Part shown: one piece after another, positions 2,153 through 32,322 of the stretch | How positions within the stretch are numbered: the stretch's first letter is position 1 | Layout of the letters: every line of letters begins with the position of its first letter | Assembly (NCBI GenBank): GCA_965204035.1 | Contig: OZ241964.1 | Span: 1,905,251 to 1,969,250, forward strand | Direction of reading: 5' to 3' | DNA: 64,000 nucleotides | DNA from: Thermodesulfobacteriota bacterium | Lineage (GTDB): Bacteria > Desulfobacterota_D > UBA1144 > Nemesobacterales > Nemesobacteraceae | Program-made: the position numbers and the translations under genes | Notes under the pieces: model-generated | Databases searched by the model: none | What the model was told of the DNA's origin: nothing | What the model saw: only the letters and a program-made list of their open reading frames with translations

Positions 2153-2234
2153 GGACGCCCCGACCTCCTGCGGACCCCCGAGCTCGGCCAGCGTCAGAAC
2201 CCGGACTTCAGCCAGGTCTTTGGCCCCTGCCTGC

Positions 2235-6030: not shown

Positions 6031-6786
6031 ATGGCAGGACCAAAAATTTACTATACTTATGACCGCAACACGTACCTCGTCAGAGGGGTTTTTTCCACGG
6101 CGGCGCTCGCCACTACCGCGGCGGCGGGAGACAGCGACCTTGTCGCGAACATCGCCGGACTGAACGAGGCGCAGGACGCCGCGGGCAACACGGTGGACGC
6201 CATGCTCGTCGAACCTGGTATCGACTGGTACCATTTTTCGGAGGCTCCTTATCTGCGTCAGCAATACCGGGATCTCCATCCGGTCAGGACCGGCGTACAG
6301 CAATTTCACGAGCGGATGCACGAGCTGTCCGCCATCGAGCGTCTGGTAGGCCCTGACTACCCGGAAATTACGGGTCTGATCGTCCGCTACACCCTCTACG
6401 GGCTGCATCAGGGCATGTACTTGATCAACCACCGCGCGGCGCTCTCTCCCGCCCAGATCGGGCAGATTCTAAGGTTTTCGGCACAGGGGCCTAACGATGT
6501 CAAGAGCGGCAGCCCAGCCTACGACCCGGACAATCCCCGGACGATAGTCCCGCTCATCGATGCCTGGCGTGAACCGCTCACTGATGAGGTAGCCATACAG
6601 AGAGCGAACCGTCCGCACGTGGTCCCACGAATTTACGCGAATATCACAGCCAATCCTCTCGTGGTGAACATAGCCCGCCGATCGTTTGCCGACATGATGA
6701 ACGAGGACATGCTCCTGGCCGGGGAGAGCGCTCCCAAGCCCGCACAGCTGCGGGAAGGAGAATGGGTCAATGAGATTAACAGGTGA
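6031..6786 (+). CDS. hypothetical protein (251 aa)
   Basis: ORF lies 4 bp after the previous stop with an upstream GGGAGG; same operon. Confidence 0.4.
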   Translation: MAGPKIYYTYDRNTYLVRGVFSTAALATTAAAGDSDLVANIAGLNEAQDAAGNTVDAMLVEPGIDWYHFSEAPYLRQQYRDLHPVRTGVQQFHERMHELSAIERLVGPDYPEITGLIVRYTLYGLHQGMYLINHRAALSPAQIGQILRFSAQGPNDVKSGSPAYDPDNPRTIVPLIDAWREPLTDEVAIQRANRPHVVPRIYANITANPLVVNIARRSFADMMNEDMLLAGESAPKPAQLREGEWVNEINR

Positions 6787-6840
6787 TTTTGACAGAAGCA
6801 GTTGAATTAACGCTATAAACTTTTAAGGAGGTATTTTCAG

Positions 6841-7695: not shown

Positions 7696-8128
7696 GCCGC
7701 TTAATTTTTAGTGGGGTCCGAGCAAATAAGCGTGCTAGAGTTGATGCAGCTTTATCTTCACAAAGATGCAGTTTCATGTTGCGCGTTATAGCAAGGAAAC
7801 AAAGCAGCAGAAAAGCAACAACTACATAATACACACGATTGCCCCCAAGAACCCTTAAAAAGCCCAAGGAAGCCACAAAGGGAAGAAGAACCACAGCCAC
7901 CCTTGCGGTAATATATTCTGAAATAATCTTTTTCATGATTTCCATCTTTCTGAGCAACAGATAATACCTGAATTGTGGACAGAACTGCCACCCCATCTGG
8001 ATAGGAAAGTATATGAGCCCCTTTAGGATAAGGTTTTTGAGGAAATGTGATTTTTCGATATGATTCCCCATAGAATCTAGGGGAAAGCAGCGCCCAGAAA
8101 TAAAAAGCGGTGAAGAAAAACGATGCAA
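7688..8128 (-). CDS. hypothetical small membrane protein (AT-rich ORF)
   Basis: ORF only. TM-like segments AVVLLPFVASLGFL and YYVVVAFLLLCFLAI. Could be spurious in AT-rich DNA. Confidence 0.2.
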   Translation of the reverse strand: MHRFSSPLFISGRCFPLDSMGNHIEKSHFLKNLILKGLIYFPIQMGWQFCPQFRYYLLLRKMEIMKKIISEYITARVAVVLLPFVASLGFLRVLGGNRVYYVVVAFLLLCFLAITRNMKLHLCEDKAASTLARLFARTPLKIKRPT

Positions 8129-8600
8129 TAATAAGCGACTGCGGGAATTACAGGTACGCGCTTCGAAGAGAGATCAAAGGGGGCGGAAATAGAGCCCTGT
8201 GCTTCATCTGCCTCAATCCGTCAAGGCAGACGGGGACAGGAACGACTCGACCGTCCTCAGTTGCATGCGTTTCGCCCGCAGTCTCGGGTACGGAGATCTT
8301 TACATGGTCAACCTGTTCGCCTGGAGGGATACGGACAGGACGGTTCTGCCTGACGACCCCGAGATCAGGGTCGGTCCGCACTGCGATTATTACATAGACA
8401 AATACACGTCGTCTTGCGACATGACGATTGCCGCATGGGGCAATTTCGTTTCCAGGCGGAAACTTTTCCGGCGGGCGAAGGAAATCACCGACCGTTACGA
8501 AAACCTGAAGGCGCTTAGAATTACCAAGAAAGGACACCCTCACCACCCGTTGTTTCTGCCCTGCGATCTTGAACCGGTCGATTTTGCGGGATACGGATAA
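8110..8600 (+). pseudogene. DUF1643-family gene split by a -1 frameshift near 8225
   Basis: Frame A (8110-8397) gives CGNYRYALRREI...LCFICLNPS; frame B (8199-8600) continues ADGDRNDSTVLSCMRFARSLGYGDLYMVNLFAWRDTD...AWGN...KKGHPHHPLF. Together these reconstruct the DUF1643 pattern CGxYRY..LNPSxAD..D.T...C..FA...GYG...V.NLFA.R. The frames switch within ccgtcaAGgcagac. Confidence 0.55.
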
Positions 8601-8852: not shown

Positions 8853-9620
8853 TCAGGGTTCAAAATTCCGGATTTTCATATAAGTAGATTCCAGTTGCTC
8901 TTTGTTGCCTAAGCACCAGCCACGCCCCTTATGAGTAAGGGAACAATGGGGTTCTTCATATTCGAGAGTAGGAGTAATTTTTATCATATCCCAGAATTCC
9001 AGCCTCCCAAAAGCATCATCCCTGTCCTGTTGGCTATACTCCAACATTTTCATTATTTTTATCAGACTTGATACGCCTCCGTCGGAATTATTCATATCCG
9101 GGTTGCAATAAAGAAACGTAAGAATAGTCAGTTCGGCTCCTTCAAATTCATCCTCATCGCAACTGGTACCGGTTGCGACAGGTTTTTTTTCTTTCTTTGC
9201 AGGTTTTTCCCCGCTGACGGCCTTGCGGAGCCTTTTTTCAATTTCCTCCTGCAGTTCCTCCCAGTCGCCCTGAGAAGTAGTGCCGTAAGAATAAGCCTCC
9301 CTCTGGTTCACGTCAAAAGGCAGTTTGTCCCGCTTGTCCTTCTCGCATATCAGCACTACCGGGACGTCATGACCGTGCGCGAAGCCCAGCTCGTACCAGA
9401 CGTTCGGATTGTCTTCGCTTATTTCAGCCAGGCAGACGGCGGATTTTTCAATTTCCTCCATGATCACCTGAATCTTTAATCTCGTCGCGTCATAATCCTC
9501 ATCCACGCGATAAGGAACCAGACCCGCTTTCTCTATAGCCGGTTTGTAGGTCTCTTCGCACCGTTTTTTATATTTATTCGTAAGTGGCTGAATGATGAAG
9601 CATTTTCTTTTCTCAGACAT
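8853..9620 (-). CDS. nucleoside 2-deoxyribosyltransferase-like / SLOG-fold domain protein with unknown C-terminal domain
   Basis: N-terminus KCFIIQPL...AVCLAEISEDNPNVWYELGFAHGHDVPVVLI resembles the NDT-like Rossmann signature (hydrophobic strand ... D/E..wElGyA.g..KPVi). Start taken at MSEKRK. Confidence 0.45.
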   Translation of the reverse strand: MSEKRKCFIIQPLTNKYKKRCEETYKPAIEKAGLVPYRVDEDYDATRLKIQVIMEEIEKSAVCLAEISEDNPNVWYELGFAHGHDVPVVLICEKDKRDKLPFDVNQREAYSYGTTSQGDWEELQEEIEKRLRKAVSGEKPAKKEKKPVATGTSCDEDEFEGAELTILTFLYCNPDMNNSDGGVSSLIKIMKMLEYSQQDRDDAFGRLEFWDMIKITPTLEYEEPHCSLTHKGRGWCLGNKEQLESTYMKIRNFEP

Positions 9621-9718
9621 TCTTCTAACCCCCAAATTGATTTTTTATCGGTTTAACTTCCTGATATATTCCCCTGTCTCTTCCAGACTGATTCTGATTT
9701 CTGGAAGGATATTCCCGT

Positions 9719-12700
9719 CTATACTTTCAGAGTCTCAATCTCGTCGTCAATCCTTCTCAACATTTTTCCGGCCCAGCGTCGGACTGTTCCTTTTTCATGA
9801 TTTTCGATGCTCCGCAAAGGTTCCATATAGCGGGCGAGATGTTCCGCCTCCGAACCCCATCCGGAAAAAGTACGCATGTTTGCCGCCAAAACGTCCAATA
9901 CTTCCTCGCGTTTCCCGAACTCATCAAGAAGACGCTTAATCACCGGATGAAATTCTTCGGATGCGGTTTCCCGGTCACGCTCTTTGAGCAATGGGAAAGT
10001 CTCCGCAACAAATGCCGGCCCGGTTTCGGGACTTGAGTAACACCACCCGAAAAGCATGTTCTGCGGAAGACTCAGAATTGGCTTTGTACCGTCTCCGGAA
10101 GACAGTTCTCCTCTTAACATCTTTGAGAGTCGCCATGAGCGCATTTCGCTTTCCGATGAGAGATCATCCTCTTCCGTCAGGACTCCGCTTATCAGCGGCC
10201 ACACAATTTCCGCAAAATTTGACAAGAGGCCAGGCAGAACGTGTGCGATCATCTTCTGGTCATTATACGTAAGGTCTTCGGTAGCGAGCTGCTTGGCGAT
10301 AGTGATTGCCACTTTCCGGGCATCGGTATCGGTGCTTCCTTTTGATATTATCCAGTTCATCAGAGTCTCGTAGCAGTGTTCATGGGACGACTTGTCATAG
10401 ACTTCTTCCGTATTGATCATGGGATATCTGGCCACGAGCAACAACTGGGGTCGGAAGTATTCTAAACATTCCTCTCGTTTGTACGCATATGAGTATATGA
10501 AATCCAGCGCGAGGCCGAAACTTGAAGAATTCTCTTTTTTGAGCAGCAAATCAAACAGAGGAATCACTTCGTCCGGTCGCAGTTTGGACAGCACACTGGG
10601 GTTCCATGCGAACATTTCACGGTGCGATATAAATCCCGCTTCCAAAGCTTCAATTAACAGTTCCACATCATCGGGGCTGATGCCGACATATAAAGGTAAT
10701 CTCGGAAAAACAGAAGCGAAAACGGAAGATCTTACCGACTCCCGTTTGAACCTCTCAACCTCTTTGGGTTCCCGTTCTTTCAGCCCCGTCATATAGCCGA
10801 CCAGAAAGTCGCCGTCTCGCTCTTCTTCCGAGGCAGACTCGAACGCTTCCGTTATTTTCTTTTTCCAGTAAAGGGGGGCCTCGGCCTGTTCCGCCATAAA
10901 GTACCCGAAAAGTCGGGCGTTTCGGTGTCGGCCGACGCACAATTCAGGTATGAGTTTCGTAAGCTCAGTCTCACGGACAAGCAGTTCTCCAGCGAGTTCT
11001 CTGAGCTTTTTGCACTGAAGTTCAAACATCTTATCGTGATCAATGTTTTTTCTCTTGAGATAATTAAAGGGCATCTCCGTGATCAGGAACCGGATTCGGT
11101 CATCCAAATCCTCCGGTTCCAAGGTGCGGATAAGGGCTTCCACTCTTCGCTCAACGAGGGGATCAATATTGTCTAGGCTGTATTCCAGAAATTTTTCAAG
11201 AGAATCAAGCGCTTCAGGCCAACATGGATGTTTTTCTTTTATCTCACGCGTCCATCTCTCGACATCTTCTATCAATCCGTCCGATACATACTTGCGCCAT
11301 TTCAGACCCAGCTCAACTCTCGCTCTTTTACCTATGTCGTCTGACCGTCTTGCAAGTTTCACCAAGTGACTGACGCACCCCTTAACATAATCCCAGAACT
11401 CCGATTCAGTCTCTGGCAACCATGGTTCAAGGGAGGGGCGGCTTCCGTGGATTTCCGGTCCCGTATAACGACGGAAACGATCACCTGTTTTCGCACCTTC
11501 AAGCAAGGCGTCGACTAGAACAGGCAGGTAGGAATCTGAGTGGTCCCAGTAATCATCCACAAGTTCTCCAATGAGATCAAGGCGTTTCCCTGAACCTGCG
11601 GCTGTGTTTGCTAAATACACGGGGAAAAGAGATTTAAACCGATCCCTGGCATTATTTATGATGTTTTCGCTTTCACCGCACGCAAGTTCCAGTAAAAGCA
11701 CCGCGGCATCTTCAAATGTATTTTCCGCAAATGCAATCTTTGAGAGCGTAGCAGTCAGGTCGCGGCGCGCGGTTCCGGTTATCTCCCTAATTTGAACTCG
11801 TTTCAGCGGACCCAGAATATCTTTTAGTACATCGACTGTGCCCCGAGGGTCTATTTCCGCAAGCCAGACCAGTATTCTCAAATTGCTTTTCCATACTCCC
11901 GGCGAACGCGAAAACATCCTATTTCCTAACATATGGCGAACTACCCTAGTCGCTATGGACTCCATGTTGAGAGAGGCAAGCTGTTTGGCCACCCTCTCCC
12001 GTAACCGTTCGGAAAGAGTTCCTACCAGAACTTCTTCCCGCTGTTTATTGCCCCATTCCTCCCACTGCCACCGAGCAAGAATGAGCGCTGCGCACTCCGG
12101 TTTTAGAATTGCGAGGCCTCCCTGCTGACGGACAACCCCGCGTCTTTTCAATTTCCGTACAGCTCCACGAAAATCTTCAACAGAAATGGTGTTTGAAAAT
12201 TCCGCGATCTCCTCGAGTTCTGTCTTTTCATCGTAAACCGCTTCTGTTGCCACGCCGCCGAACGCGCTTACAATCATCGCGGCTTCGTAGACATATTCCT
12301 GAGAATCCCCGCCAAGTAATTTTCGGACAAGGAAATCTTCATTCTCCGAAGCGGTCAATCCTTTCTCCATCCATGACCCGGCGATTATCCGGGCGCAAGT
12401 AATATCGCCTTCCGAAAAGACAATTATGCGTCGGCGGTCCGTCTCGATTATGCCGGGATCAAGAGATTTAATTATGTTTTCGACAAGAGAATTTTCAGCG
12501 GCGCCCACAACGAGCGTGTTTTCCGATTCTTCCGCGTTAGGGGGAATCTCCCAGCTGATGGTCACCAGAGAGAGACTGCTGACTGAATGCTTAACAATGC
12601 TGACAAGGTCTATGCGGGTCTCCTCCGAGCAACGGTCAACAACCAGCACAACCCGTTTCCCGGAGTTCGCAAGATTCGTCGCGTATTCCTTTATTTTCTG

Positions 12701-13735
12701 GGAACCGGCTTCCGACTCAACCGCGTAAAGCACTAGGTCGCTTAACTTCGCTCCCGAAATTCTCTCAGTTTTGGTCGGGCCGAAAGCCTCCAGAGCGAGG
12801 CGCGATTTTCCGGCACCTGACAGTCCGACGACCCGAGCGACACCTTTCGGAGTTTCGACAATGGCACGCAGTCTTTCCCGGAAACCCGGCAGCCGCGGGT
12901 CGTCAATCCAGGGCGAGTCGCAGTGTTCCGGCCTGCCGGACCAATGCTTCCAGTCCTCGAAAAAAGAGTCTATAAGTCCCGGTCTCGTCTTCCGTAGAAG
13001 CCAGATGGCTACAGAAGGATGATAGTTCACCCATGAAGCTATCTGGCCCGAATCGCGAAACTGGACAGAAGGGTCTTTGAAACCGTGGTTTCCCAAGTTT
13101 TTTCTTATTTCGTCTAAACGCCTATCAATCAGGTTTTGGGTGTAAGGACTGGAACAGAGCATTATGTATGAAGCGCCTCTTTCAAGCGCTTCTCGAACCA
13201 TGGGCCTTAGCTTGTTCTCCGCGGTAAGAACTTCATCTCCAGCTTTTTTGGGAGAAACATACCCCGTCTTTAACTGAAACTGGCAGAACCGTCTCGGGAG
13301 GAAATGCGTGCGCGGCGGGCCGTCCCGCCATTCTATGCGCGCGTCCTCGCCGCCGTCGGGGGCAGCCGTTTCGAAAGCGACGTGAATTCCATCTAACGGA
13401 AGATTACACTGCAGGGCTTCGGCAACTAGCAGCTTTTCGACCAAGGTGCTGAATTCAGAAGGCTTTAATCTTGAAACATCCTCATCCGTAACATCAAACG
13501 GGGTTGTCGCCGGTTTTTTCTCCTCGACTTCCTGCCCGGTTATCTCCGGCAGCCTTTCCGGTTTTTTCTCCAATAATCTCAGTATCCTTACCAAAGCTGC
13601 GGAAGGTTTTACCGAACCTTTTTCGTATTTCGCAAAAGCACTGGAACCGCCACCTAGCAACTCTCCGGCTTCGGCTTGCGACAAACCCAACGATTGCCTT
13701 ATTTCTTTTATTTTCTGGGGATTCATTCTTTTCAA
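9719..13735 (-). CDS. Avs/AVAST-like STAND NTPase: N-terminal XRE-type HTH + Mrr-like PD-(D/E)xK nuclease + P-loop NTPase + long helical-repeat C-terminus
   Basis: HTH: IKEIRQSLGLSQAEAGELLGGGSSAFAKYEKG. Mrr_cat-like: PSEFSTLVEKLL...DGGEDARIEW...CQFQLKTGYVS. Walker A VVGLSGAGKSRLALEAF; Walker B RVVLVVDRCSEE. About 800 aa of helical repeats follow. The listed start is a TTG; an in-frame ATG lies 9 nt downstream. Confidence 0.55.
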   Translation of the reverse strand: MKRMNPQKIKEIRQSLGLSQAEAGELLGGGSSAFAKYEKGSVKPSAALVRILRLLEKKPERLPEITGQEVEEKKPATTPFDVTDEDVSRLKPSEFSTLVEKLLVAEALQCNLPLDGIHVAFETAAPDGGEDARIEWRDGPPRTHFLPRRFCQFQLKTGYVSPKKAGDEVLTAENKLRPMVREALERGASYIMLCSSPYTQNLIDRRLDEIRKNLGNHGFKDPSVQFRDSGQIASWVNYHPSVAIWLLRKTRPGLIDSFFEDWKHWSGRPEHCDSPWIDDPRLPGFRERLRAIVETPKGVARVVGLSGAGKSRLALEAFGPTKTERISGAKLSDLVLYAVESEAGSQKIKEYATNLANSGKRVVLVVDRCSEETRIDLVSIVKHSVSSLSLVTISWEIPPNAEESENTLVVGAAENSLVENIIKSLDPGIIETDRRRIIVFSEGDITCARIIAGSWMEKGLTASENEDFLVRKLLGGDSQEYVYEAAMIVSAFGGVATEAVYDEKTELEEIAEFSNTISVEDFRGAVRKLKRRGVVRQQGGLAILKPECAALILARWQWEEWGNKQREEVLVGTLSERLRERVAKQLASLNMESIATRVVRHMLGNRMFSRSPGVWKSNLRILVWLAEIDPRGTVDVLKDILGPLKRVQIREITGTARRDLTATLSKIAFAENTFEDAAVLLLELACGESENIINNARDRFKSLFPVYLANTAAGSGKRLDLIGELVDDYWDHSDSYLPVLVDALLEGAKTGDRFRRYTGPEIHGSRPSLEPWLPETESEFWDYVKGCVSHLVKLARRSDDIGKRARVELGLKWRKYVSDGLIEDVERWTREIKEKHPCWPEALDSLEKFLEYSLDNIDPLVERRVEALIRTLEPEDLDDRIRFLITEMPFNYLKRKNIDHDKMFELQCKKLRELAGELLVRETELTKLIPELCVGRHRNARLFGYFMAEQAEAPLYWKKKITEAFESASEEERDGDFLVGYMTGLKEREPKEVERFKRESVRSSVFASVFPRLPLYVGISPDDVELLIEALEAGFISHREMFAWNPSVLSKLRPDEVIPLFDLLLKKENSSSFGLALDFIYSYAYKREECLEYFRPQLLLVARYPMINTEEVYDKSSHEHCYETLMNWIISKGSTDTDARKVAITIAKQLATEDLTYNDQKMIAHVLPGLLSNFAEIVWPLISGVLTEEDDLSSESEMRSWRLSKMLRGELSSGDGTKPILSLPQNMLFGWCYSSPETGPAFVAETFPLLKERDRETASEEFHPVIKRLLDEFGKREEVLDVLAANMRTFSGWGSEAEHLARYMEPLRSIENHEKGTVRRWAGKMLRRIDDEIETLKV

Positions 13736-13856
13736 CCCTCTGCTTTGACATATAATATCACATTGGTATAATATATCAATATGGTAAATATTTTCTCAGA
13801 AAAAATTGTTGCCACGCTGATTTAAAAACACAGGAATATCATGGAGGAATCGTGTT

Positions 13857-14060
13857 ATGCCAAGCGAGACAGACCAGATTGGGATTATCCTGAGGATAGA
13901 CAGCGATAGGTTCTACTGCGAAAAAAAACCCAGTCAATTTACGGAGGATCAATCCGAGGCCGACATACTTACGGATGCAGAAGCGGAAAGAATTCGGAGA
14001 ATCCTTGTTCACAGGGGCTTAAGAAGGGTCACCAAAATATCGGTGTTGCCGGGATATTGA
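13857..14060 (+). CDS. small hypothetical protein (67 aa)
   Basis: Good RBS ggaggaatcgtgttATG. No family recognised. Confidence 0.3.
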   Translation: MPSETDQIGIILRIDSDRFYCEKKPSQFTEDQSEADILTDAEAERIRRILVHRGLRRVTKISVLPGY

Positions 14061-14127
14061 CCTGAAATTCTGAGCATGTACGCAGTAAATCTAGCTGGAC
14101 AATCCTAATTCTTGGGACAACACCAAC

Positions 14128-14982
14128 ATGAACGCACAACTCAAAGAAAAGTTTATCAAGCGGATTGATCAGCTTTTAGAAAAAGCCGAGGAGGTAAAAG
14201 CTACTGAGGAGCCACCACCGACTAGTAGTGGCGGAATTGCCTTTATCGGATTCCCGGCAACATTAGACAGTATGGCCTTTTTCGAATGGAAGAGCAGTGC
14301 AGAAAATTTAATTGCCCAAATCGTTAGCAAAGACAGTTCCGACTACAAAAATTTCCTAGACGAAGTAAAAGATGAGCACAGAAGTCACGTCGACCGCGGT
14401 ATCGGGATTTTAAATTCTTTAAAAGATAGATTGCAATCGGGATTTCTTGATTTAACTTCAATTGAAGGTTCCCAAACACTCGGGGTTGATAATAGCAAGA
14501 CAATAAAGACATCTCGAGAGGTGAAAACGAAGAAAAACAAGGTTTTCGTGGTTCACGGACACAATGAAGAAATCCTGTTGAAAACCAAAGACTTTCTTGA
14601 AAAACTCCAGCTGGAACCAATAATTCTTAGAGAGTTGCCCGATGAGGGTCGGACGATTATCGAAAAGTTTATGGAATATTCCGCTCAGGCTGGATTTGCC
14701 GTTGTTCTATTAACCCCGGACGACAAAGGTGGAAGCAGATCAGATTCGTATAAAAATCAAAGGTTCAGGGCTCGGCAGAACGTAATCCTTGAACTCGGTT
14801 TTTTTCTTGGTTCTCTTGGAAGAAAACTTGTATGCGTCCTTTATCAAAGAGATGTCGAAATCCCCTCAGATTATAAAGGCGTGCTGTTTGTGGAAGTTGG
14901 CGACACCGATGGGTGGCGAATAAAGCTGGCCCGAGAGATAAAAAAAGCAGGTCTTGAAGTTGATCTAAATCTGCTTGCTTGA
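14128..14982 (+). CDS. protein with C-terminal TIR-like (SLOG/'predicted nucleotide-binding protein containing TIR-like domain') domain
   Basis: KVFVVHGHNEE...GRTIIEKF...AGFAVVLLTPDDKG...NVILELGFF matches the FVvHGhd...g.tI..k.e....a.fAvvLlTpDD signature of bacterial TIR-like/SLOG domains. The N-terminal ~140 aa are unknown. Confidence 0.5.
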   Translation: MNAQLKEKFIKRIDQLLEKAEEVKATEEPPPTSSGGIAFIGFPATLDSMAFFEWKSSAENLIAQIVSKDSSDYKNFLDEVKDEHRSHVDRGIGILNSLKDRLQSGFLDLTSIEGSQTLGVDNSKTIKTSREVKTKKNKVFVVHGHNEEILLKTKDFLEKLQLEPIILRELPDEGRTIIEKFMEYSAQAGFAVVLLTPDDKGGSRSDSYKNQRFRARQNVILELGFFLGSLGRKLVCVLYQRDVEIPSDYKGVLFVEVGDTDGWRIKLAREIKKAGLEVDLNLLA

Positions 14983-15037
14983 TAGTGGTCGTGGTTTCAA
15001 GCTTGCCTTTCTTTGAGGTTTTGTCAGCAAAAAACCG

Positions 15038-15748
15038 ATGCCTGAAAAAAAACTCTTTCTAATACCATGCTGCGCTTCCAAAAAACATGACGGCCATTCC
15101 CGCTCCGCCGCGCCCGACCCTCTAAGCCGTTTAGTTTCGGAGGCGACTTACTCCGCCATTCTGGAAACCAGGAGGGAGGTGCTCTCGGGCATTCGCCAAG
15201 ACAGGAGATACCTGTCCGGAAAATACGAAAAAAACAGGAGACTTGAACCAGGACCGGACTTCGGCGGACAGAGCGCATCCGGACTTTACCTCCCAGCCGT
15301 ACAAAGATATAAAGGCACGCTTTACTCAAACGCCCCCGCCCTTTCATCAGGGAGCGACCGGGGCGGCCGGATTCTCATCCTGTCGGCACTCTACGGACCG
15401 CTTCACCCCCTGAGCCGCATTCAGGACTACAACCTGCAGATGAGCGATAAGCCCGCCTACGGAACATGGAAGAAGCGCCTTCCGGGTTTTCTTCGGAACT
15501 ACGCTCTTTCTAACGGGATTCGGGAGGTTCACCTCTTTTTCGGAAGCAGCACGTACTATCTGAAAGCGGCGCAAGCCGCCGTGGAACCCCTGTTAAAAGA
15601 GAAACTGATTAAAAAAGCGATCCAGTATCACGTCGTTGGCGGAAGCACGAGGCTGACATCCCAGACACACGGCGAACTGCTCGAAGACTTTCTGAATCGG
15701 GGAAGCACAGACGAACTTCCCGGGAACGTCGAGGAGCGCGCTTTATGA
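15038..15748 (+). CDS. YaaA/DUF328 (UPF0246)-like protein
   Basis: LFLIPCCASKK (cf. YaaA LILISPAKT), GLYLPAVQRYKGTLY and RILILSALYGPLHPLSRIQDYNLQM (cf. YaaA RILSGLYGLLRPLD.I.PYRLEM). Overlaps the next gene by 4 bp. Confidence 0.45.
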   Translation: MPEKKLFLIPCCASKKHDGHSRSAAPDPLSRLVSEATYSAILETRREVLSGIRQDRRYLSGKYEKNRRLEPGPDFGGQSASGLYLPAVQRYKGTLYSNAPALSSGSDRGGRILILSALYGPLHPLSRIQDYNLQMSDKPAYGTWKKRLPGFLRNYALSNGIREVHLFFGSSTYYLKAAQAAVEPLLKEKLIKKAIQYHVVGGSTRLTSQTHGELLEDFLNRGSTDELPGNVEERAL

Positions 15749-16518
15749 GTGAGGAGTGCCGGTTCATACATGATCTCGCGGGGAAGCTCGACAGGCATAA
15801 ATTTCCTTTCGAACCCCAACGAATTCCCGAAAGCGGAATATATCTGCTCTTTGAGGCGGGGGAAACCGCCCTTGGAACCGACCGAATCGTTCACGTCGGA
15901 ACGCACTCGGGAAAGCGGGGGCTCAGGTCAAGGCTCCGGGAGCACGACACTCCCAACAAGGACCGGAGCATACTGAGGAAGAACATCGGCCGGGCCCTTT
16001 TGCGCGAAAGCGGGAATCCCTTTCTTGAGAAATGGAACCTTGACCTCACCTCAAGGGAGGCGAGACGGAAACACGGCCCGTCCGTCGACTTCGAACGACA
16101 GAGGGCAATTGAGGAGGCCGTGACGGACCGGATCCGGAGAACCTTTTCCTTCGTCGCGTTCCCCGTGGAAGACAAGGATGCCCGGTTCAGACTCAAGTCG
16201 GGGATTATATCCACCTTGTCACGATGCGACTGCTGTCGACCGTCGGAGCAATGGCTGGGCGGATATTCTCCAAGAAGCAAAATTCGAGAAAGCGGCCTCT
16301 GGCTCACGCAGGGGTTGGGCAAGGAACCGCTGTCAGGAGATGAAATCAGCTACTTGCGGGCAATGGTGCCGCGAACGGATGGAACATTCCAGAGCACCGG
16401 AATCCTTTCGAAAAGCTCGATGACCGGAAAACAAATTCCTCCCCGGAGAGTCGGACTCAACCGAATCGCCTCTCCACCTGTCCGGAATTATTCGGGCCAA
16501 TCAGAAAAGCGGACCTGA
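15745..16518 (+). CDS. GIY-YIG nuclease-domain protein
   Basis: GIYLLFEAGETALGTDRIVHVGTHSGKRGLRSRLREH gives the GIY-(x10-11)-YVG ... R...H motif. C-terminal ~150 aa unknown. ATGA overlap with the upstream gene. Confidence 0.55.
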   Translation: MSEECRFIHDLAGKLDRHKFPFEPQRIPESGIYLLFEAGETALGTDRIVHVGTHSGKRGLRSRLREHDTPNKDRSILRKNIGRALLRESGNPFLEKWNLDLTSREARRKHGPSVDFERQRAIEEAVTDRIRRTFSFVAFPVEDKDARFRLKSGIISTLSRCDCCRPSEQWLGGYSPRSKIRESGLWLTQGLGKEPLSGDEISYLRAMVPRTDGTFQSTGILSKSSMTGKQIPPRRVGLNRIASPPVRNYSGQSEKRT

Positions 16519-16641
16519 CCGGACGCGTCCTTGTTTCTACTGAAACGCCCATCTTTTTTTTTCTTTCTCCTAGGTTTATTGGGAATAACGATGAAAAACC
16601 CTGGTTTCCGGTCCGGGAGAAAATCCCTCTCCACTATCAAA

Positions 16642-16692
16642 AGGGCAAAAAAAAAGCGGGCAACCTTTGTTAGGGAGCCCGCTTCGTTCAAG
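16642..16692 (-). terminator. rho-independent terminator for the minus-strand outer-membrane gene
   Basis: On the minus strand, stem agcgggc/gcccgct with a ~15-nt loop is followed by T9 (plus strand: aaaaaaaaagcgggcaacctttgttagggagcccgcttcg). Confidence 0.6.
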
Positions 16693-16719
16693 CTTTGTGA
16701 GCTTTGTTTTGTTTTGTTC

Positions 16720-18270
16720 TTATTTCATGAACTGATCGATGTAAACCATCAGCCTTGTCTGAAACGCCCAGATCGTATCATCGGCGCTGCTAGTGTCCCC
16801 GTTGGCAGCTCCATGAGCCTCAATCAGGTCAGTAAGACCGTCACCGGCGATTACCAAGCTTCCGATCAAGTCAAGGTTTACGCCCGGATGAAGCGTCCAG
16901 GTAAGCGTTCCCTCAACCTCGGTTCCGAGGTACTCGGCAACCTCTGCGGCACCAATACCCGACCCGAAGTTAGCTCCGTAAAAACTACTATCAAAAGCTG
17001 AAACCGCATGTGTCTCGTCGTTCCAGGCAATCAGAACCTGAGGAGTGAACCCTATGTTCTCGGCAATAGTCACGTTCGCGTAAGCCTTGGCGTAGATAGC
17101 GTTTATAACGCTTCCTTCTATATTATAAACAGTCGGAATGACATGCTTGAAGAGAAGGTTATCTACGTTATATGCAGGGCTGAACGGAAGGGCGTTACCT
17201 TCGATCGTGAGAGGCGTAGAAGCATCGTCACCTTGCGCCCAACCGGCTTCAATACCTATCGCGCTTACCTGAGCCATCATTGAAGGATAGACCTCAAGAC
17301 GGGCCGCCATGTCGAAAGCGTAGTCAAATTCAACATCAGTACCCGTAAAATCGACACCTCCAAGCGGCGTAGTATCACCGGCAGCTAACTCTCCCCCTCC
17401 GAACATCTGAACTTCGTAGGTGAAGCTCCAGTTAGCAGCTTTAAGTACTAGAAGACCTGCGTACAAGGAAGTGCGGTCAACATCCCAATTGTATCCCAAG
17501 CCGGGACTGAATATGTTTTGCTGATGCAGGTACGGGAATCCGTACGCTCCCACGGTCACGTTGACATCTCCCATCTGCTGGTTGTAGATACCCGCCGCGG
17601 CAAGTATGTCATAGCCTGTGCCTTCGGAACTGGCGAACAGGCTGGTACCCTGAGTGAATACGTCAGACACGAGAACCAAGGTGAAGGTTCCGGCGCCCGC
17701 TGGGAACGACTTTAACCAAAGCAACCTGTCAACCACGAAACCGAGGTCTGAATGCGGATCGTGTCCGCCGTTTGCGAGAATCCCGAGACCCCAGTCAAAA
17801 GGCTGGCGTCCTATCCTCACGAAACCAAGGTTGTTCGGAAGAACTATGTCCGCGTGAAGCATGCGAACGCTAAAATATCCGATATCGTCAAAAACACTGC
17901 TTGAACCGCCGGCTTTAGCGCCATGTAAAATAGCGCCCCTGAAGCGATCGTTTGGTCTGAGATCGGACAGAACCACGCTGTCACCACCTCCACCAAAGAA
18001 ACCGCTGGTAACGCCACCCCATACCATGTTGTTCGCAACATCGATCTGAGCCCTAACGGTAACCGCGTCGCTTAGGCCCATCTGCGGGGTGACCCTGAGC
18101 GTCGTATCAGTAACATTAATCCTCTCACCGCTAAAAGTGGCATTGTCAATGACACGAGTTCTCGTTCTCAAGTAACTCGGAAATCCGCCAAGCGACCAGT
18201 CTATCGCGAATGACGGGATCGACATGCCAAGAACGGCGAAAAATATTATAAGCCATCTGGCTTGAATCAT
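16720..18270 (-). CDS. outer-membrane beta-barrel protein (porin-like), signal peptide present
   Basis: N-terminal signal MIQARWLIIFFAVLGMSIPSFA. Alternating hydrophobic beta-strand pattern throughout and Gly/aromatic-rich. Family not identified. Confidence 0.4.
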   Translation of the reverse strand: MIQARWLIIFFAVLGMSIPSFAIDWSLGGFPSYLRTRTRVIDNATFSGERINVTDTTLRVTPQMGLSDAVTVRAQIDVANNMVWGGVTSGFFGGGGDSVVLSDLRPNDRFRGAILHGAKAGGSSSVFDDIGYFSVRMLHADIVLPNNLGFVRIGRQPFDWGLGILANGGHDPHSDLGFVVDRLLWLKSFPAGAGTFTLVLVSDVFTQGTSLFASSEGTGYDILAAAGIYNQQMGDVNVTVGAYGFPYLHQQNIFSPGLGYNWDVDRTSLYAGLLVLKAANWSFTYEVQMFGGGELAAGDTTPLGGVDFTGTDVEFDYAFDMAARLEVYPSMMAQVSAIGIEAGWAQGDDASTPLTIEGNALPFSPAYNVDNLLFKHVIPTVYNIEGSVINAIYAKAYANVTIAENIGFTPQVLIAWNDETHAVSAFDSSFYGANFGSGIGAAEVAEYLGTEVEGTLTWTLHPGVNLDLIGSLVIAGDGLTDLIEAHGAANGDTSSADDTIWAFQTRLMVYIDQFMK

Positions 18271-18609
18271 CTCTCCTTACCTCCTGTAAATTTATATTCC
18301 AAAATTAACAACCGCGCCCCAGTTTCCTAAACCGGACGCAGAATATAATCAAACTCTTTATAAGCTTACTACAAGAGCAAGCCTGATTTCAAGCGTTTTT
18401 TCCCTTAACGGAAAATTACACCATCTCTTAATACGCCTTTAACAATAAACTATGAAGGCGGCTGTGTCAAGAGTTTTTGACCGGAACCAGCCTCAACGGA
18501 CTTAAAAACAGTACCGATCTGTCAGCCCAGGCGATACCAAAACAGCCTCATTAATCCCGGCCGGCGCGTAAACGCGAGAAGTCCCGGCCAAGCCCCGCTT
18601 TCGCAATAA

Positions 18610-19278
18610 TCACCCCCTCCCGAAGAACCGAAGGGTGATAAACGGAATGAGGCTGAGCGCGGGCGAGAGCGCAAGCTGCGTCGCGGCGCTTTTGCGCAAA
18701 GGCTCCTTCATAGCCATTATCCCCGAGTAAAGCCAAGCCGGATCCCCGATGAATCCCCTTGCCGCCTCGCAGAAGAAAAAAACATTCCGCGGACTCAGGA
18801 GAAAAACGAGCAGGTTAAATACAAGGAACACAAGAACTCCCTTCGCGACCAGGCTAAGCGCCCTTCCCCACACAAGGGAGTTAACGGCCTTCCTCGTGAG
18901 GTTTCCCCCGTAGTACCCGGCAAGCATCCCCCCGAGAATTGCCGTCATCATGAGGCTTATCCCGAAACCGAAAAGAAAGACCAGGCATTTCCCCAAAAGA
19001 TCGGCCGTCGCGCCGAAAGCCGGAATCACATCCTCCCACACTCCCCAGGCAAGCGGAAGAAGCAGACCAAGAAACGCCCCCTCCCAGAAACCGCTTCGAG
19101 CTCCCACCATGAAAAAAGTAAGCATTCCCCTCACCGTCAGGAAATCAGAAGGTATGTCCTGCCCCGTGCGCTCTATTATATGGTACTGCTGTATCTCCGA
19201 TATCGCGTCTATAAGGTTGCGCGGGGACGCGTGGGGCGAAGACGATATGGGAGTGAACCCTCCCCTCCCGCCGCTCAC
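18610..19278 (-). CDS. polytopic inner-membrane protein (about 5 TM helices), unknown family
   Basis: Clear TM helices (LTFFMVGARSGFWEGAFLGLLLPLAWGVW; LVFLFGFGISLMMTAILGGMLAGYY; VLVFLVFNLLVFLL). Confidence 0.35.
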   Translation of the reverse strand: MSGGRGGFTPISSSPHASPRNLIDAISEIQQYHIIERTGQDIPSDFLTVRGMLTFFMVGARSGFWEGAFLGLLLPLAWGVWEDVIPAFGATADLLGKCLVFLFGFGISLMMTAILGGMLAGYYGGNLTRKAVNSLVWGRALSLVAKGVLVFLVFNLLVFLLSPRNVFFFCEAARGFIGDPAWLYSGIMAMKEPLRKSAATQLALSPALSLIPFITLRFFGRG

Positions 19279-19391
19279 GGCCCTTCTCCTCTACACATGG
19301 ATATAAGGCGTGAGAAAGCCTGGGTTTTCAACGCCCGAAGGCCCGGCAAATTTCCCGACGCGAAAAATTTTTTGAAAAAAGTAATGGACAT

Positions 19392-20840
19392 TTGATTCTA
19401 ATTGTCATACAGTGTATCTCAAATATCAAAAAATGGACAGAAAAAGATGCCGGTAAAAATAACCTCAAAAAGACCCGGGAGGAAAGCCCCTTGATAGGAC
19501 TCCGAGCAAAGAAGCTCTCCGATCCCCCACCCCCCGCGGGGGCGGCCGTAGGGGAGGGAGTAGCGCTTGACCGCGACCCCGGGACGGAGCCCGCGCCGAT
19601 AACGGTTCCCGACGCAGACCGCGAGGGACACATATTCACCATGGGCGCCACGCGAAGCGGAAAGACCCGCCTCGCCGAGGCCATGATAGAGCACGACATA
19701 AGGGCGGGGAGGAGCATCCTCTGGATAGACCCCAAGGGGGATAACGCCATTTTCTCAAAAATAGTGACGGTGGCCAGGGAGACGGGACGGGAGGACGATC
19801 TTCTTTTTTTCTCCCCCGTCCATCCCCGCTACTCGGTGAAGATAGACCCTCTCTCCCACTACTTCATGCCCGAGGAGGTCGTTAATCACGTGGTTTCGGG
19901 CGTGCGTGTGCGCGAGGAGTTCTACTTCAACATAGCCTACGAGGTGACGCTCGTCGTGGTGCAGGGACTCATGCTGATATCAAGATCCCTCGGGGAGCGG
20001 CCCGCGTTCACGTTCCGCAGGATAAAGGAGAACATAGGCTACAGGGAGCTTGAGGGCCTCCGCGCCCAGATAGCCGGGATAGAGGGCCCCGAAGCGGAGG
20101 AGGTCCTCGTGAACCTCGACCAGATTCTCTCCTCTCCCCAGGACTATTTCTCCAAGGTCTCCTCAAGTCTCAGGACCGTGATAACGTCGCTCAGCTCGGG
20201 TTCGGTGGGAGAAATCATCGGCAAGGACACCTCAAACCGGTTCATAGAGCGCCTCGAGGCGGGAAAGGGGGTGATACTGGTGGTGCAGACGGGTTCGCTC
20301 CTCACCAGGAAAACGGCCCACATAATGGCACGGGTGCTTCTCTCCATGGTGCAAAGCTTCGTGGGCAGGGTGCTTGCCTCGCAAAGGAAGATCGACCCTC
20401 CCCTCGCCGTATACGCCGACGAGGCGTCAAACGTTCTTTACTTCGGAATAGACGACCTTTTCAACAAGGCGGGCGGGGCCGGGGTGTGGCTTCACATGCT
20501 GACTCAGAGCAAGCAGGACCTCGTGGCCGAGCTCGGCCCGGCCTACACGGGAAAGATACTCGACAACACGAACACCAAGATAGTTTTCCGCGTCAACGAC
20601 CCCAACACCGCGGCCTACGCCTCCCGCATGGCCGGGACCGCGAAAAGGTTCTCCCCCATAATGAGCCTCGGCGGGGGTCTCAGCGTGAGGGAGATAGAGG
20701 AGAGCAGGGTGCCGCCCGAGAGTTTCCTCAGGCTCGGGCGAAGGGAGTTCTACGCCTTCACCTTCGACGGCATATACAGGGGCAGAACCCTTGATGTGCG
20801 CCCGTGCGAGGAAATACGGTTCCCGGAGATAAAGAACTGA
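19392..20840 (+). CDS. type IV coupling protein (VirD4/TraD/TraG-like) ATPase domain
   Basis: Walker A FTMGATRSGKT (cf. VirD4 xPTRSGKG), WIDPKGDNA (cf. conserved DPKGE), Walker B LAVYADEASN. No N-terminal TM helices in the ORF. The listed start is a TTG; true start uncertain. Confidence 0.55.
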   Translation: MILIVIQCISNIKKWTEKDAGKNNLKKTREESPLIGLRAKKLSDPPPPAGAAVGEGVALDRDPGTEPAPITVPDADREGHIFTMGATRSGKTRLAEAMIEHDIRAGRSILWIDPKGDNAIFSKIVTVARETGREDDLLFFSPVHPRYSVKIDPLSHYFMPEEVVNHVVSGVRVREEFYFNIAYEVTLVVVQGLMLISRSLGERPAFTFRRIKENIGYRELEGLRAQIAGIEGPEAEEVLVNLDQILSSPQDYFSKVSSSLRTVITSLSSGSVGEIIGKDTSNRFIERLEAGKGVILVVQTGSLLTRKTAHIMARVLLSMVQSFVGRVLASQRKIDPPLAVYADEASNVLYFGIDDLFNKAGGAGVWLHMLTQSKQDLVAELGPAYTGKILDNTNTKIVFRVNDPNTAAYASRMAGTAKRFSPIMSLGGGLSVREIEESRVPPESFLRLGRREFYAFTFDGIYRGRTLDVRPCEEIRFPEIKN

Positions 20841-22237
20841 TGAGGAGGAGAAAAAGAGCAGAAATGAAACACTTTCCCCAAGTGGCGATCAGCTGGGAGA
20901 CGGCGGTCGTTTTTTCGCTTTTCCTCTTCTCCCTGGGCGCGGCCCTCTGCGCGCTCGCCCTCAGGCAGAGAAAAGAAAAACGAAGCGGGCCCGAAACAAT
21001 AGAATTCACGACGGCTTCGGCAAAAAGGGCCCCGCGGGCGCAAAACGGCGCCGGGGCGGAAACCATAGGGACCCTCGCGGAGAGCCTGTGGCTCAGAACC
21101 GATCCCGAACCCGCGGTGCTCTCGGACCGAGAGCCCGCGGCGGGACCCGTCTTCAAAAACCCCGAGACCGGAGCCTTCTGGGCAGAGGAGATAGAACCCA
21201 ACCGCCGCCTCTTTGAGAAAAGGGGCGAACTCGCGGTAATAGAGAGGATCCTTGGGGAACTTGACCGCCACGGCATCTGCTCAAGCGTCGTCGCCGGGGA
21301 CGGGAAAAGCGCGTTTGCGCCGACCGCAAGGCGCTTCTCGCGCGTCACCCTGCTTGAGCACTCGCTTCGGGCGGCGCGGTGCATGAGGGAAATACACGAC
21401 TCGCTCTACACGGAGAGGGTTCTCTACGGAAAGCATCTCATCGCGGCCCTCGCCCACGACGTGGGAAAAATGGAGCACCTGCGTCCCGAAGACGGGCGCT
21501 ACGTGAAGGATGACCACGCGGCGGCGTCCGCAAGGGCGCTTAACGCGTGGATAATGGAGTGCGGGGGAGAGCGGGCCGCCCTTTCATTGCGCTCCGTGGT
21601 GGACGCCGTCAGGAACCATCACAGGAGCGTAAACGAACCCGACAGTATCCTTGAGAATCTTAAAAGGGCGGATATGGCGGCGCGGGAGGAGGAATTCTCG
21701 GGAGTGCGCAAAAGCCCGCGCGCCGCGGCAGCGTCCCCCGGCGAGGCGGATACCGGGCCGCCCGAGTGGCTGCTTCGCGACATGCCCCGGATACTTAACG
21801 ACCACGTGGGGCCCGCGATAAACGAGGCGGCGCTTGAGGAGGCGCCCTTCGCCCGGGCGATATCCTCCACAAACGGAATTGTCTACGTCTGTCCCCACTA
21901 CCTTCTTGACGGGGTCAGGGAGCATATGGAGCGGGAGGAGATAGCGGACATGAGGTTTTTCGAACCGTCCCGTCCCGCGGAACTTCGGGCAAAGCTCCTG
22001 GTCACAAACTCCCTCAAGGCCCGCAACTGGGTGGCAGATGGGGTTAGCGACGGCTACTACGCCGCCTTCTGGAACTACGAGCATGGGGGAAAAAAGGTAA
22101 AAAAAGGCGGCTTCTGGGTGCCCGTTTTCGCAGAAGCGTTCGACGTGGCGCTTTCCGAACTCGAAAAAAGAAAAACTTCGGAGCTTCGCCGGATCACTTC
22201 CGTTTCGCCGTGTCTTGCGCGGGGACGAAAAAAATAA
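20804..22237 (+). CDS. HD-domain phosphohydrolase-like protein with N-terminal TM helix (conjugation-associated; relaxase role not established)
   Basis: TM helix AVVFSLFLFSLGAALCALAL. HD pattern EHSLRAARCM...LAHDVGK...DDHAAA...NHH. Confidence 0.4.
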   Translation: MRGNTVPGDKELMRRRKRAEMKHFPQVAISWETAVVFSLFLFSLGAALCALALRQRKEKRSGPETIEFTTASAKRAPRAQNGAGAETIGTLAESLWLRTDPEPAVLSDREPAAGPVFKNPETGAFWAEEIEPNRRLFEKRGELAVIERILGELDRHGICSSVVAGDGKSAFAPTARRFSRVTLLEHSLRAARCMREIHDSLYTERVLYGKHLIAALAHDVGKMEHLRPEDGRYVKDDHAAASARALNAWIMECGGERAALSLRSVVDAVRNHHRSVNEPDSILENLKRADMAAREEEFSGVRKSPRAAAASPGEADTGPPEWLLRDMPRILNDHVGPAINEAALEEAPFARAISSTNGIVYVCPHYLLDGVREHMEREEIADMRFFEPSRPAELRAKLLVTNSLKARNWVADGVSDGYYAAFWNYEHGGKKVKKGGFWVPVFAEAFDVALSELEKRKTSELRRITSVSPCLARGRKK

Positions 22238-22300
22238 ACTAAACTCAAGCGGGCGGCGTCTGTCCGTCCGAAAAAAAAACATATTAATGGAGGTAAAAAA

Positions 22301-22714
22301 ATGAAAAACAACAAGACAGGTAATGTCACACTCGTCATTGGCCAGATATCGTACGGGCAGCTCGAGCAGGAAGCCCGCAAGAGAGCGCTCTCGCCGGGAG
22401 ACTATCTCGAAATGCTGATAGAGATGGATCAGATCTCCAACACGGGAAGCGACCCGGGGGATGTGGTGTCGGTGTCAATTTCGGAGAGACACTACTCCCT
22501 TCTCAGCCGGGAGGCGGAAGCGAGCGGACACGGGGCGGACACGTGCGCCGAGATGATAATAGGCGCCTCGGCCGAGATGTTCCCCGAGAGGCCGCTTTCA
22601 AGGGAGAAGTTCGACGCCGTGGTGGAAGCGTGGGGAGGTGTCGATTTTACGACCGAGAAAAAACAGGAGGGCGCGCGCAAGCGCGGAAACTCTCTTCACA
22701 AAGCCTCGTCCTAG
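22301..22714 (+). CDS. TraY-like relaxosome accessory protein (tandem ribbon-helix-helix-like repeats)
   Basis: Two RHH-like segments (NVTLVIGQISYGQLEQEARKRALSPGDYLEMLIEM; VVSVSISERHYSLLSREAEASGHGADTCAEMIIGA). The size (137 aa) and position before traA-traL match F traY. Confidence 0.35.
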   Translation: MKNNKTGNVTLVIGQISYGQLEQEARKRALSPGDYLEMLIEMDQISNTGSDPGDVVSVSISERHYSLLSREAEASGHGADTCAEMIIGASAEMFPERPLSREKFDAVVEAWGGVDFTTEKKQEGARKRGNSLHKASS

Positions 22715-30251: not shown

Positions 30252-30265
30252 TTCCGTGTCACTCT

Positions 30266-31915: not shown

Positions 31916-32322
31916 TCATATGTCTTATTATTACTTTTAAGTTTTTCCCGAATCCCCTTTCCCACAGCATTTCCCGACAAAGCTTCTCCTAATTGATTTC
32001 ACCGTTTAAAATCAAATTCGGGATAAAAGTTGCAGGATGCTAGGCATTTTCGCTCGGTTTTGAGCAGATTCAACAGTAAGTGCAAGATTATTCCGGCCAT
32101 AATCTTATTTTCCCTCGACTCTGGTGGAGAAAGCTTTTTAAGAACCTTTTTTCGTCAGTGAGTCGCTTAGCATCAACTTAACAAGTCTTTTTTGCCTATT
32201 TCCTAGGAATTTCGGGAAAACTAAACTTAATCTTTGTTATATATAATAGTACTACAGTCCGTGGTTTCAAGTAAAAAGGCAAGGTTCCGATGCCGCGAAA
32301 AAATAAAACGGCGACGGAATAA

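Follow-up and report, generated by a model that had tools for sequence, protein, structure and literature searches.

What does a relative of the stress protein YaaA do when its gene overlaps that of a GIY-YIG nuclease? The question is raised by a locus of a Thermodesulfobacteriota bacterium (GenBank assembly GCA_965204035.1, contig OZ241964.1), analysed here within the 64,000 nucleotides (nt) from position 1,905,251 to 1,969,250 of the contig; this whole stretch is called the window, and coordinates are counted from its first letter. A first-pass annotation of the sequence had described three co-oriented genes, for a TIR-like protein, a YaaA-like protein and a GIY-YIG nuclease, as one cluster in a defence island. 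The three open reading frames (ORFs) are indeed there, with 284, 236 and 257 amino acids (aa), preceded by a 67-aa ORF that begins at 13857, where the annotated region began, and all three domain calls are correct (PF10137, PF03883 and PDC-M57B/PF26468, respectively). The answer that we tentatively favour, at a little under an even chance, is that the last two genes (15038-16518) encode a self-contained two-subunit DNA endonuclease, a version of the PADLOC candidate system PDC-M57 with a long first subunit, which would act in the manner of type IV restriction. The YaaA-like protein is called subunit A and the nuclease subunit B.

The overlapping gene pair and its products

The features of the pair are these:
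15023-15037, no strand: left edge of the DNA homology to related conjugative elements (blastn)
15038-15748, forward strand: subunit A, 236 aa, a long-form protein of the YaaA/DUF6884 superfamily (Pfam, motifs)
15745-15748, forward strand: ATGA start/stop overlap of A with B (sequence read directly)
15745-16518, forward strand: subunit B, 257-aa ORF, GIY-YIG nuclease (PADLOC PDC-M57B, PF26468)
15745-16383, forward strand: conserved region of B, about 213 aa (PF26468 GIY_YIG_3, equal to PADLOC PDC-M57B)
16384-16518, forward strand: non-native C-terminal tail of B (stop position in relatives, low model confidence)

The junction of the two genes reads TTTATGAGT, in which the TGA of A and the ATG of B share 4 nt; the overlap from which translational coupling had been proposed is therefore real.

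Subunit A matches the Pfam family YaaA (PF03883) above its cutoff (33.6 bits against 29.6, E 3.7e-8), the match being partial and covering residues 83-154, and it matches DUF6884 (PF21818) with 22 bits (E 1.9e-4), under the Pfam cutoff of 30. In NCBIfam the best YaaA equivalog has a cutoff of 278 bits, and A scores 20.7. Because the equivalogs are missed by so wide a margin, A is taken to be a relative within the superfamily and no orthologue of YaaA. The AlphaFold2 model of A is confident (predicted local distance difference test score, pLDDT, 94.7) and has the cantaloupe fold of Escherichia coli YaaA (PDB 5CAJ); a profile search of PDB sequences starting from A also finds 5CAJ (E 3.2e-5). 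An alignment of 69 sequences of A shows the conserved segments IPCCAxK, RYxGxLY and ILILSALYGPLHP...IQDYNLxM.

Two forms of A can be distinguished. The majority of the partners of B are short, at about 139 aa, and the short form at the canonical locus L009 (loci and related elements carry our own numbers with the prefix L) matches the PADLOC model PDC-M57A with E 8e-62. The A of the window belongs to the long form: it has 236 aa, including a helical insertion of about 70 residues, and against the same model (138 positions) it reaches E 0.015 and 13.7 bits. Besides the clade of the window, a few other clades have long forms (about 236-250 aa). The segments C11-C-A-S-K15 and L115-S-A-L-Y-G120 are at least 90% conserved over long and short forms together, and from the shared motifs, Pfam families and gene position the A of the window is clearly homologous to the M57A-type proteins. 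The curators of DUF6884 describe the same CxxxK and LSAxxG motifs, propose that they form a pocket beside a DNA-binding cleft, and predict a base flip (PMC11701544). By these motifs, A is predicted to be the DNA-binding, base-reading component of the pair.

Comparison with three better known members of the superfamily places A among them without making it equivalent to any. E. coli YaaA (DUF328/UPF0246) shares with A the motifs RYxGxxY and ILSxLYGxLxP...YxLxM, but the two proteins are only 17% identical and A bears the CxxxK motif of the DUF6884 type, which YaaA is not known to have. YaaA is also a stand-alone and widely conserved stress protein, whereas A has a nuclease partner and a sporadic distribution. 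Papers that cite earlier work on YaaA describe it as DNA-binding (cited in PMC11701544, PMC8632793). The Bacillus subtilis DUF6884 protein YfjM resembles A in its CxxxK and LSAxxG motifs and in having the small cantaloupe-fold core; it has no known nuclease partner, and the A of the window falls below the DUF6884 cutoff and above that of YaaA. The third relative, DpdC of the Dpd 7-deazaguanine system, is a DUF328 member of the superfamily and a defence-system enzyme acting on a single modified base in DNA: it hydrolyses dPreQ0 to dADG within DNA, as part of a system resembling restriction-modification (bioRxiv 10.1101/2025.10.09.681413; PMC5699537). Short-form A matches the PADLOC models of DpdC (E 1.6e-6), and the A of the window has no match to them at E<=0.1. 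Unlike DpdC, A and B are not accompanied by dpdA, dpdB or genes for preQ0 synthesis, and the partner is a GIY-YIG nuclease.

Subunit B matches PDC-M57B strongly (E 2.8e-78), but neither the local Pfam set (PF01541 included) nor NCBIfam or PHROGs gives a match at E<=0.1, and a profile of B finds no significant match among the sequences of solved structures in the PDB. It was identified by fold search alone: the model has the GIY-YIG alpha/beta fold, with R.Eco29kI, a type II enzyme, as its top structural match. The homologues of B number more than 1000, and PF26468, named GIY_YIG_3, is found on 120 of the 120 matches listed. That the B of the window belongs to PF26468 is taken from these labels and from the alignment, in which it agrees with 34 invariant columns of the family, and not from a direct score against the model.

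The residues expected of a GIY-YIG active site are largely in place. Across 68 sequences, Y33 in the GIY strand, R63 and H67 (spaced R63-x3-H67) and E123 do not vary, and they were equated with residues of I-TevI and Eco29kI by their position in the motifs. The GIY strand, the R-x3-H helix and the metal-binding Glu are common to B and to R.Eco29kI, the N-terminal domain of UvrC, T4 EndoII, I-TevI and PD-T4-3, the last of which is a GIY-YIG enzyme whose restriction activity is specific for modified cytosine (PMC12923530). In several respects B departs from these nucleases. It matches neither solved structures nor PF01541 at the sequence level; the YIG position reads (R/H)-V-G, so that Arg or His replaces the second Tyr; at about position 133 the window has Thr for the consensus Asn, a position that is variable in the window's clade; there are about 80 more residues at the C-terminus; and B needs, or is fused to, a partner of YaaA fold. 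The second Tyr and the Asn are not known to be universal across the GIY-YIG superfamily. In the same 68 sequences C5, H9 and C161 are also invariant, and C164 nearly so. On these conserved residues, B is predicted to be an active nuclease and probably carries an additional Cys/His metal site, a further difference from the known enzymes.

The end of B in the window is a special case. The AlphaFold2 model is confident for residues 1-210 (pLDDT above 90) and poor for residues 225-255 (below 50), and the relatives of B stop earlier, ending ...PRTARGD* (215 aa), with downstream DNA that translates to residues resembling the window's tail. From the earlier stop and the disordered tail of the model, the last 45 or so residues are judged not to be native: the usual stop codon has been lost, and translation reads through into what was intergenic DNA. 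The DNA past the normal stop of B is conserved in related elements (L001-L005, about 6650-6790). Frameshifts in the A or B gene are seen in three of these relatives, which are metagenome-assembled genomes (MAGs) from long reads (L001, L004 and L005), and could be assembly errors or real decay.

The pair is already catalogued as PDC-M57, and what is new here is the long, YaaA-like form of A. The canonical locus L009 matches both PADLOC models (M57A, E 8e-62 as above; M57B, 9e-103), and the catalogue entry and the window share the overlapping two-gene layout; the difference lies in A, whose score of E 0.015 means that a PADLOC rule requiring both genes would probably miss the window's pair. The listing in PADLOC-DB is a prediction from genomic context only, and according to reviews most PDCs still await validation (PMC12988326). 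A search of the literature found no published mention of PDC-M57 and no experiment on the A-B pair; a search combining 'YaaA' and 'GIY-YIG' gave one paper, which was irrelevant. The earlier statement that no defence role is established for such a pair thus holds as far as experimental validation is concerned, and needs correcting in that the pair is catalogued.

Linkage, fusion and distribution of the pair

B was sought in one genome per species across 185,579 species genomes and found in 368, of which the best 80 loci were examined. These span Thermodesulfobacteriota, Chloroflexota, Bacteroidota, Patescibacteria, Methanosarcinales, Woesearchaeota, Nanoarchaeota and others. In about 90% of the 80 loci, all from other species, a gene of the DUF6884/YaaA type lies directly upstream of B; the first-pass annotation had named a lack of such recurring adjacency as grounds for refutation, and it is not refuted on this count. 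More strictly, an ORF on the same strand that has the CxxxK motif as well as LSAxxG is directly upstream in 64-67 of the 80, to which are added two A-B fusions and three frameshifted A genes; when the ORFs directly upstream of B in the window and 75 loci were compared with Pfam, 70 of the 76 matched DUF6884 and 35 of them YaaA as well. The overlap between the genes in other species is mostly 8 nt (27 loci) or 4 nt (18 loci).

The two proteins are often joined covalently. An exhaustive profile search finds 1851 cluster representatives of the B family at E<=0.001, and 51 of the top 150 are A-B fusions. A C-terminal extension of at least 80 aa is carried by 32 of the 51, and the domain DUF7662 was found in the extension of all five such fusions scanned with Pfam. 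Single fusion proteins add a Pif1 helicase at the N-terminus, tetratricopeptide (TPR) repeats or a zinc ribbon of the topoisomerase type, and one protein of the B family has leucine-rich repeats (LRR), with no DUF6884 domain detected in it. The proteins behind the observations on fusions are P0037, P0084 (418 aa); P0344, P0347, P0340 (462-482 aa); and P0397, P0402, P0423. We also note a helix-turn-helix (HTH) domain of the MqsA type fused to B; an N-terminal domain of the same type is found on the PD-Lambda-4_A-like protein of the window.

All-against-all clustering of 800 neighbouring ORFs from the 80 loci revealed no conserved third gene beyond closely related conjugative elements, and no conserved methyltransferase accompanies A and B among the same ORFs. 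A nuclease with no cognate methyltransferase is the arrangement seen in type IV restriction. Given the conserved adjacency, the frequent fusion and the lack of a conserved third gene, A and B are regarded as an autonomous functional unit. It is a cellular and not a viral module: B was found in none of 50,697 phage records, with one weak plasmid match and matches in 3 of 2.9 million viral contigs.

The possibility that the B proteins paired with long-form A form one clade was considered and dropped; they fall into about three groups in a rough neighbour-joining tree, which is too crude for more.

Long-form A also occurs in another association. In L081 (6001-9791) and L083 (6001-9781), which represent a sister clade, a long-form A, 52-54% identical to that of the window, has no B behind it; next come the genes for a 279-aa protein and for a DNA methyltransferase of 721-724 aa (DUF1156/N6_N4). 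The 279-aa protein has no match in Pfam or PADLOC; its homologues, 720 in number, are well conserved and without exception annotated 'hypothetical', and by eye alone it contains a PD...E-x-K motif (PD...E-V-K). A comparison with hhalign ruled it out as a homologue of B. These genes may represent an undescribed system, resembling restriction-modification, that includes a protein of YaaA fold.

A possible mechanism, and the explanations that compete with it

We propose that A would bind duplex DNA and flip a non-canonical base, modified or otherwise abnormal, into its Cys/Lys pocket, by analogy with the predictions made for its superfamily, and that recognition of this base would position or license B to cut nearby. 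The pair would then serve, in the way of PD-T4-3, as a modification-dependent restriction system of type IV character against phages or other invading DNA, and the host's own DNA would be spared for want of the recognised base. This combination of reader and cutter is suggested by the functions of the YaaA superfamily, the intact GIY-YIG site, the obligate coupling or fusion of the two proteins and the lack of a methyltransferase. The broader proposal, that the YaaA-fold subunit is a base-flipping reader directing a GIY-YIG nuclease, in a class of endonucleases, two-part or fused, that would be widespread in bacteria and archaea and would act at modified or damaged bases, is a possibility that we put forward with some doubt.

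A defensive role is favoured by the PADLOC listing, by the position of the pair in a cargo hotspot in the window and in its closest relative L096 (described below), by the sporadic distribution across domains and by the TPR fusion, as well as by the sister clade in which long-form A is found with the 279-aa protein and the DUF1156/N6_N4 methyltransferase. Some loci elsewhere have toxin-antitoxin genes, transposases, type I restriction-modification, GmrSD, GajB-like helicases, SIR2 or ThsB-TIR near A and B.

There is also evidence that weighs against defence, and the characterised relatives of A point to DNA damage. The pair might be an accessory repair endonuclease, in which A reads a lesion (an abasic site, a ribonucleotide, or a base altered by oxidation or cross-linking) and B nicks beside it, as does the GIY-YIG domain of UvrC or Cho, to open an alternative route of excision repair; the mechanism would be as we propose, and the role would differ. 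Loss of YaaA sensitises Caulobacter to ultraviolet light, mitomycin C and H2O2 (PMC10055390), and YfjM is enriched on DNA baits with abasic sites and ribonucleotides (PMC10220248, PMC11701544). In L082 (4207-7375, in a MAG of about 2.9 Mb) a long-form pair lies directly downstream of mutY (HhH-GPD and NUDIX_4 domains) and yggX, and in L024 a gene for an HhH-GPD glycosylase is directly upstream of an A-B fusion. Other loci are bare two-gene insertions in core genes: in L006 the pair sits between pdh genes (pyruvate dehydrogenase) and holA, and L089, L090 and L092 have similar housekeeping settings. Among 130 flanking proteins searched with Pfam and PADLOC, with no background control, restriction-modification, GmrSD, GajB and mad proteins appear beside ABC transporters and aminotransferases. 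With so many copies amid housekeeping genes, a defence role is not settled. B is conserved to a degree unusual for a defence gene, archaeal and bacterial proteins being about 50% identical and the alignment having the 34 invariant columns, which would fit an invariant substrate, and a Pif1 helicase in some fusions is also in keeping with repair. Set against this are the sporadic occurrence (368 of 185,579 species genomes) with horizontal transfer across domains, the listing of the pair as a defence candidate, the hotspot with defence genes in the window and L096, the sensor-like TPR and LRR repeats in fusions, and the methyltransferase-containing system of the sister clade. Repair is on balance unlikely, though it is the strongest of the alternatives. 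As to L082, YggX is an iron-trafficking protein, and a setting of oxidative damage echoes the role reported for YaaA.

Could the pair instead be a two-gene restriction-modification system of new chemistry, in which A marks the host DNA, as DpdC does in the Dpd system, and an Eco29kI-like B cuts DNA that is unmarked? R.Eco29kI, the top structural match of B, is after all a type II enzyme, the conserved Cys and Lys of A look catalytic, the superfamily has a DNA-modifying member in DpdC, and overlapping pairs and fused forms are typical of such systems. However, the short form of A, at about 139 aa, has no recognisable domain for binding a cofactor or donor, and DpdC only converts a base installed by other enzymes, none of which is conserved with A and B. 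We consider this improbable.

A toxin-antitoxin or abortive-infection pair, with A holding a toxic nuclease B inactive until infection, is no less improbable. It would account for a smaller upstream gene that overlaps the gene of a nuclease, and modules of this kind are nearby at some loci; but a third of the top B-family representatives (51 of 150) are covalent A-B fusions, which is unusual for such pairs, and what A has is a conserved pocket like that of an enzyme, in a DNA-binding fold, and not the features of an antitoxin. Still less can be said for a selfish cassette of the homing-endonuclease kind, spreading through cleavage of empty sites: bare two-gene cassettes between core genes, as in L006, would suit it, but B is missing from the phage records and nearly so from viral contigs, the insertion sites are mutually unrelated, and the conservation is far above the norm for homing enzymes, so that we regard it as very improbable.

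The TIR gene, the conjugative element and the meaning of the pair

The two-subunit endonuclease that we prefer leaves out the TIR-domain gene that precedes A. The features immediately upstream of A are:
13745-13772, forward strand: promoter-like site, TTGACA/16-nt spacer/TATAAT with TG extension (12/12 consensus match)
13857-14060, forward strand: 67-aa candidate ORF (from the ORF list), the first in the region of the first-pass annotation
14128-14982, forward strand: 284-aa TIR-domain protein (PF10137, PADLOC PDC-S35)

The 284-aa protein, which contains the sequence FVVHGH...AVVLLTPDD, has a helical N-terminal half and a C-terminal half that is a TIR domain of the CAP12/Pycsar type (PF10137 CAP12-PCTIR_TIR, residues 138-257, E 4.1e-37). 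The first description of it as TIR-like was right; the alternative label SLOG was imprecise, the Pfam family being that of the CAP12/Pycsar TIR domain. The protein matches phrog_16442 (E 3.8e-46), and the PADLOC single-gene candidate PDC-S35 covers residues 26-283 (E 3.1e-69). It scores 45 bits against the cutoff of 450 for the NCBIfam equivalog of Cap12, and is therefore not Cap12 itself. By these matches it is a TIR-domain member of PDC-S35, a catalogued and unvalidated single-gene family.

The DNA around the pair shows where the unit begins. By blastn, 15023-22575 is about 82% identical to L001-L004, with no homology left of 15023. The homology starts 15 nt before A, takes in B and the genes that follow it, which encode proteins of 516 and 222 aa, a type IV secretion coupling protein (19392-20840) and an HD protein, and ends at 22575; further right are homologues of TrbI (24729-25886) and TraC/VirB4 (26392-28824). 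The first 7.5 kb or so of this backbone (to 22575) is conserved together with A and B in MAGs of Thermodesulfobacteriota and Dadabacteria. The closest relative, L096, whose A is 94% identical, has the same conjugation backbone after A and B, and on the left side SNF2-helicase, HTH and SIR2 genes where the window has the TIR gene. The TIR gene of the window is missing upstream of A and B in L096 and L001-L006, and from beside them in all of the 80 other loci. Since synteny with the relatives begins only at 15023, the TIR gene is outside the A-B unit, and since the left-side genes differ between the window and L096, it is variable cargo of a hotspot. A and B stand at the fixed inner edge of this variable defence-cargo hotspot of a conjugative element. 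It follows that the three genes are not one system, and the cluster of three first described has to be given up; the TIR gene is a separate single-gene candidate, whose only common ground with A and B is the hotspot. The left side of L002 carries as cargo a gene for a NucS-like nuclease.

As a third component of A-B the TIR protein is thus rejected, and a single three-gene system, in which it signals to A and B or acts with them as an effector, is scarcely credible in spite of the co-oriented genes, the 55 nt from TIR to A with no terminator-like site found between 14982 and 15038, and the one strong promoter-like site upstream, given the homology break at 15023, the lack of the gene beside A and B elsewhere and the match of the protein over its full length to a stand-alone PADLOC candidate.

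That promoter-like site (13745-13772) came from a scan for sigma-70-type promoters that gave 9 sites against 2.0 expected, and judged from its sequence it is a possible start of a forward transcript carrying the 67-aa ORF, the TIR gene, A and B. The 67-aa ORF has no match in Pfam, PADLOC, NCBIfam or PHROGs. A second promoter-like site, on the reverse strand (13779-13752, 10/12 match), is back to back with the first in the intergenic region between the divergent genes, which suggests a shared control region for the PD-Lambda-4-like and TIR genes. Scans of the window for tRNAs and Rfam families found no RNA element.

The remaining features on the left are:
54-1007, forward strand: DDE transposase PF13701 (E 3e-114, from profile position 121)
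2013-3974, forward strand: 653-aa protein with PKD/Ig and weak phage-tail-like domains, left of the island
8110-8600, forward strand: DUF1643 gene, apparently split by a frameshift (ORFs 8110-8397 and 8199-8600)
8853-13735, reverse strand: 1338-aa protein with MqsA-type HTH and P-loop, then 260-aa TIR-like protein (PD-Lambda-4_A, 3.9e-70)

The left-side cargo of the window thus comprises the PDC-S35 TIR gene, the 1338-aa PD-Lambda-4_A-like gene, a gene for a 260-aa protein resembling TIR proteins and nucleoside deoxyribosyltransferases, and DUF1643. A defence-island setting had been proposed at the outset, and the local surroundings do resemble one, with matches to the PADLOC models PD-Lambda-4_A, TIR effector, PDC-S35 and PDC-M57B; the neighbours then named are also present, namely DUF1643 (3e-25), the 260-aa TIR/SLOG-like protein and the 1338-aa protein with HTH and P-loop. 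The last of these has the MqsA-type HTH at its N-terminus and a GxxGxGKS P-loop that was read by eye. The 260-aa protein matches the PADLOC 'Effector TIR' (7e-9) and phrog_3634 (1e-18). No PD-Lambda-4_B is detectable next to the 1338-aa protein, and the two genes may represent a version of PD-Lambda-4 in which the effector has been exchanged. In the DUF1643 gene the N-terminus is recognised by eye in ORF 8110-8397, and ORF 8199-8600, in another frame, matches DUF1643 from profile position 24 (E 3e-25); it is possibly a pseudogene or a sequencing error. The DDE transposase is probably truncated.

The description of a lower-GC island applies to part of this region. The GC content is low across about 8-15 kb, with 42.5% at the TIR gene, but A and B have 53-55%, near the 55-64% of the backbone. 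Low-GC stretches are also seen at 30001-33000 and 48001-51000 (40-47% against about 58-64% in the flanks), and may be further acquired islands.

The window therefore presents a hotspot of a conjugative element in which defence cargo is exchanged and A and B stay fixed. For the proteins themselves, YaaA/DUF328 is a large and widely conserved family with a crystal structure and stress phenotypes, and its biochemical activity is unclear. A protein of YaaA fold coupled obligately to a nuclease with an intact site predicts recognition of the state of a base, followed by cleavage of the DNA. If the pair restricts modified phage DNA, it would provide a compact new reader domain for modification-dependent restriction and could find use as a reagent to map bases that are modified; if its role is the repair of lesions, it would be a new excision pathway, common in small-genome archaea and bacteria of the candidate phyla radiation. 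Should A prove to be a base-flipping reader, this would be the first direct biochemical handle on how the YaaA/DUF328/DUF6884 superfamily acts on DNA, and the long form, together with the sister clade that pairs it with a 279-aa protein and a methyltransferase, would show the reader to be a swappable specificity module.

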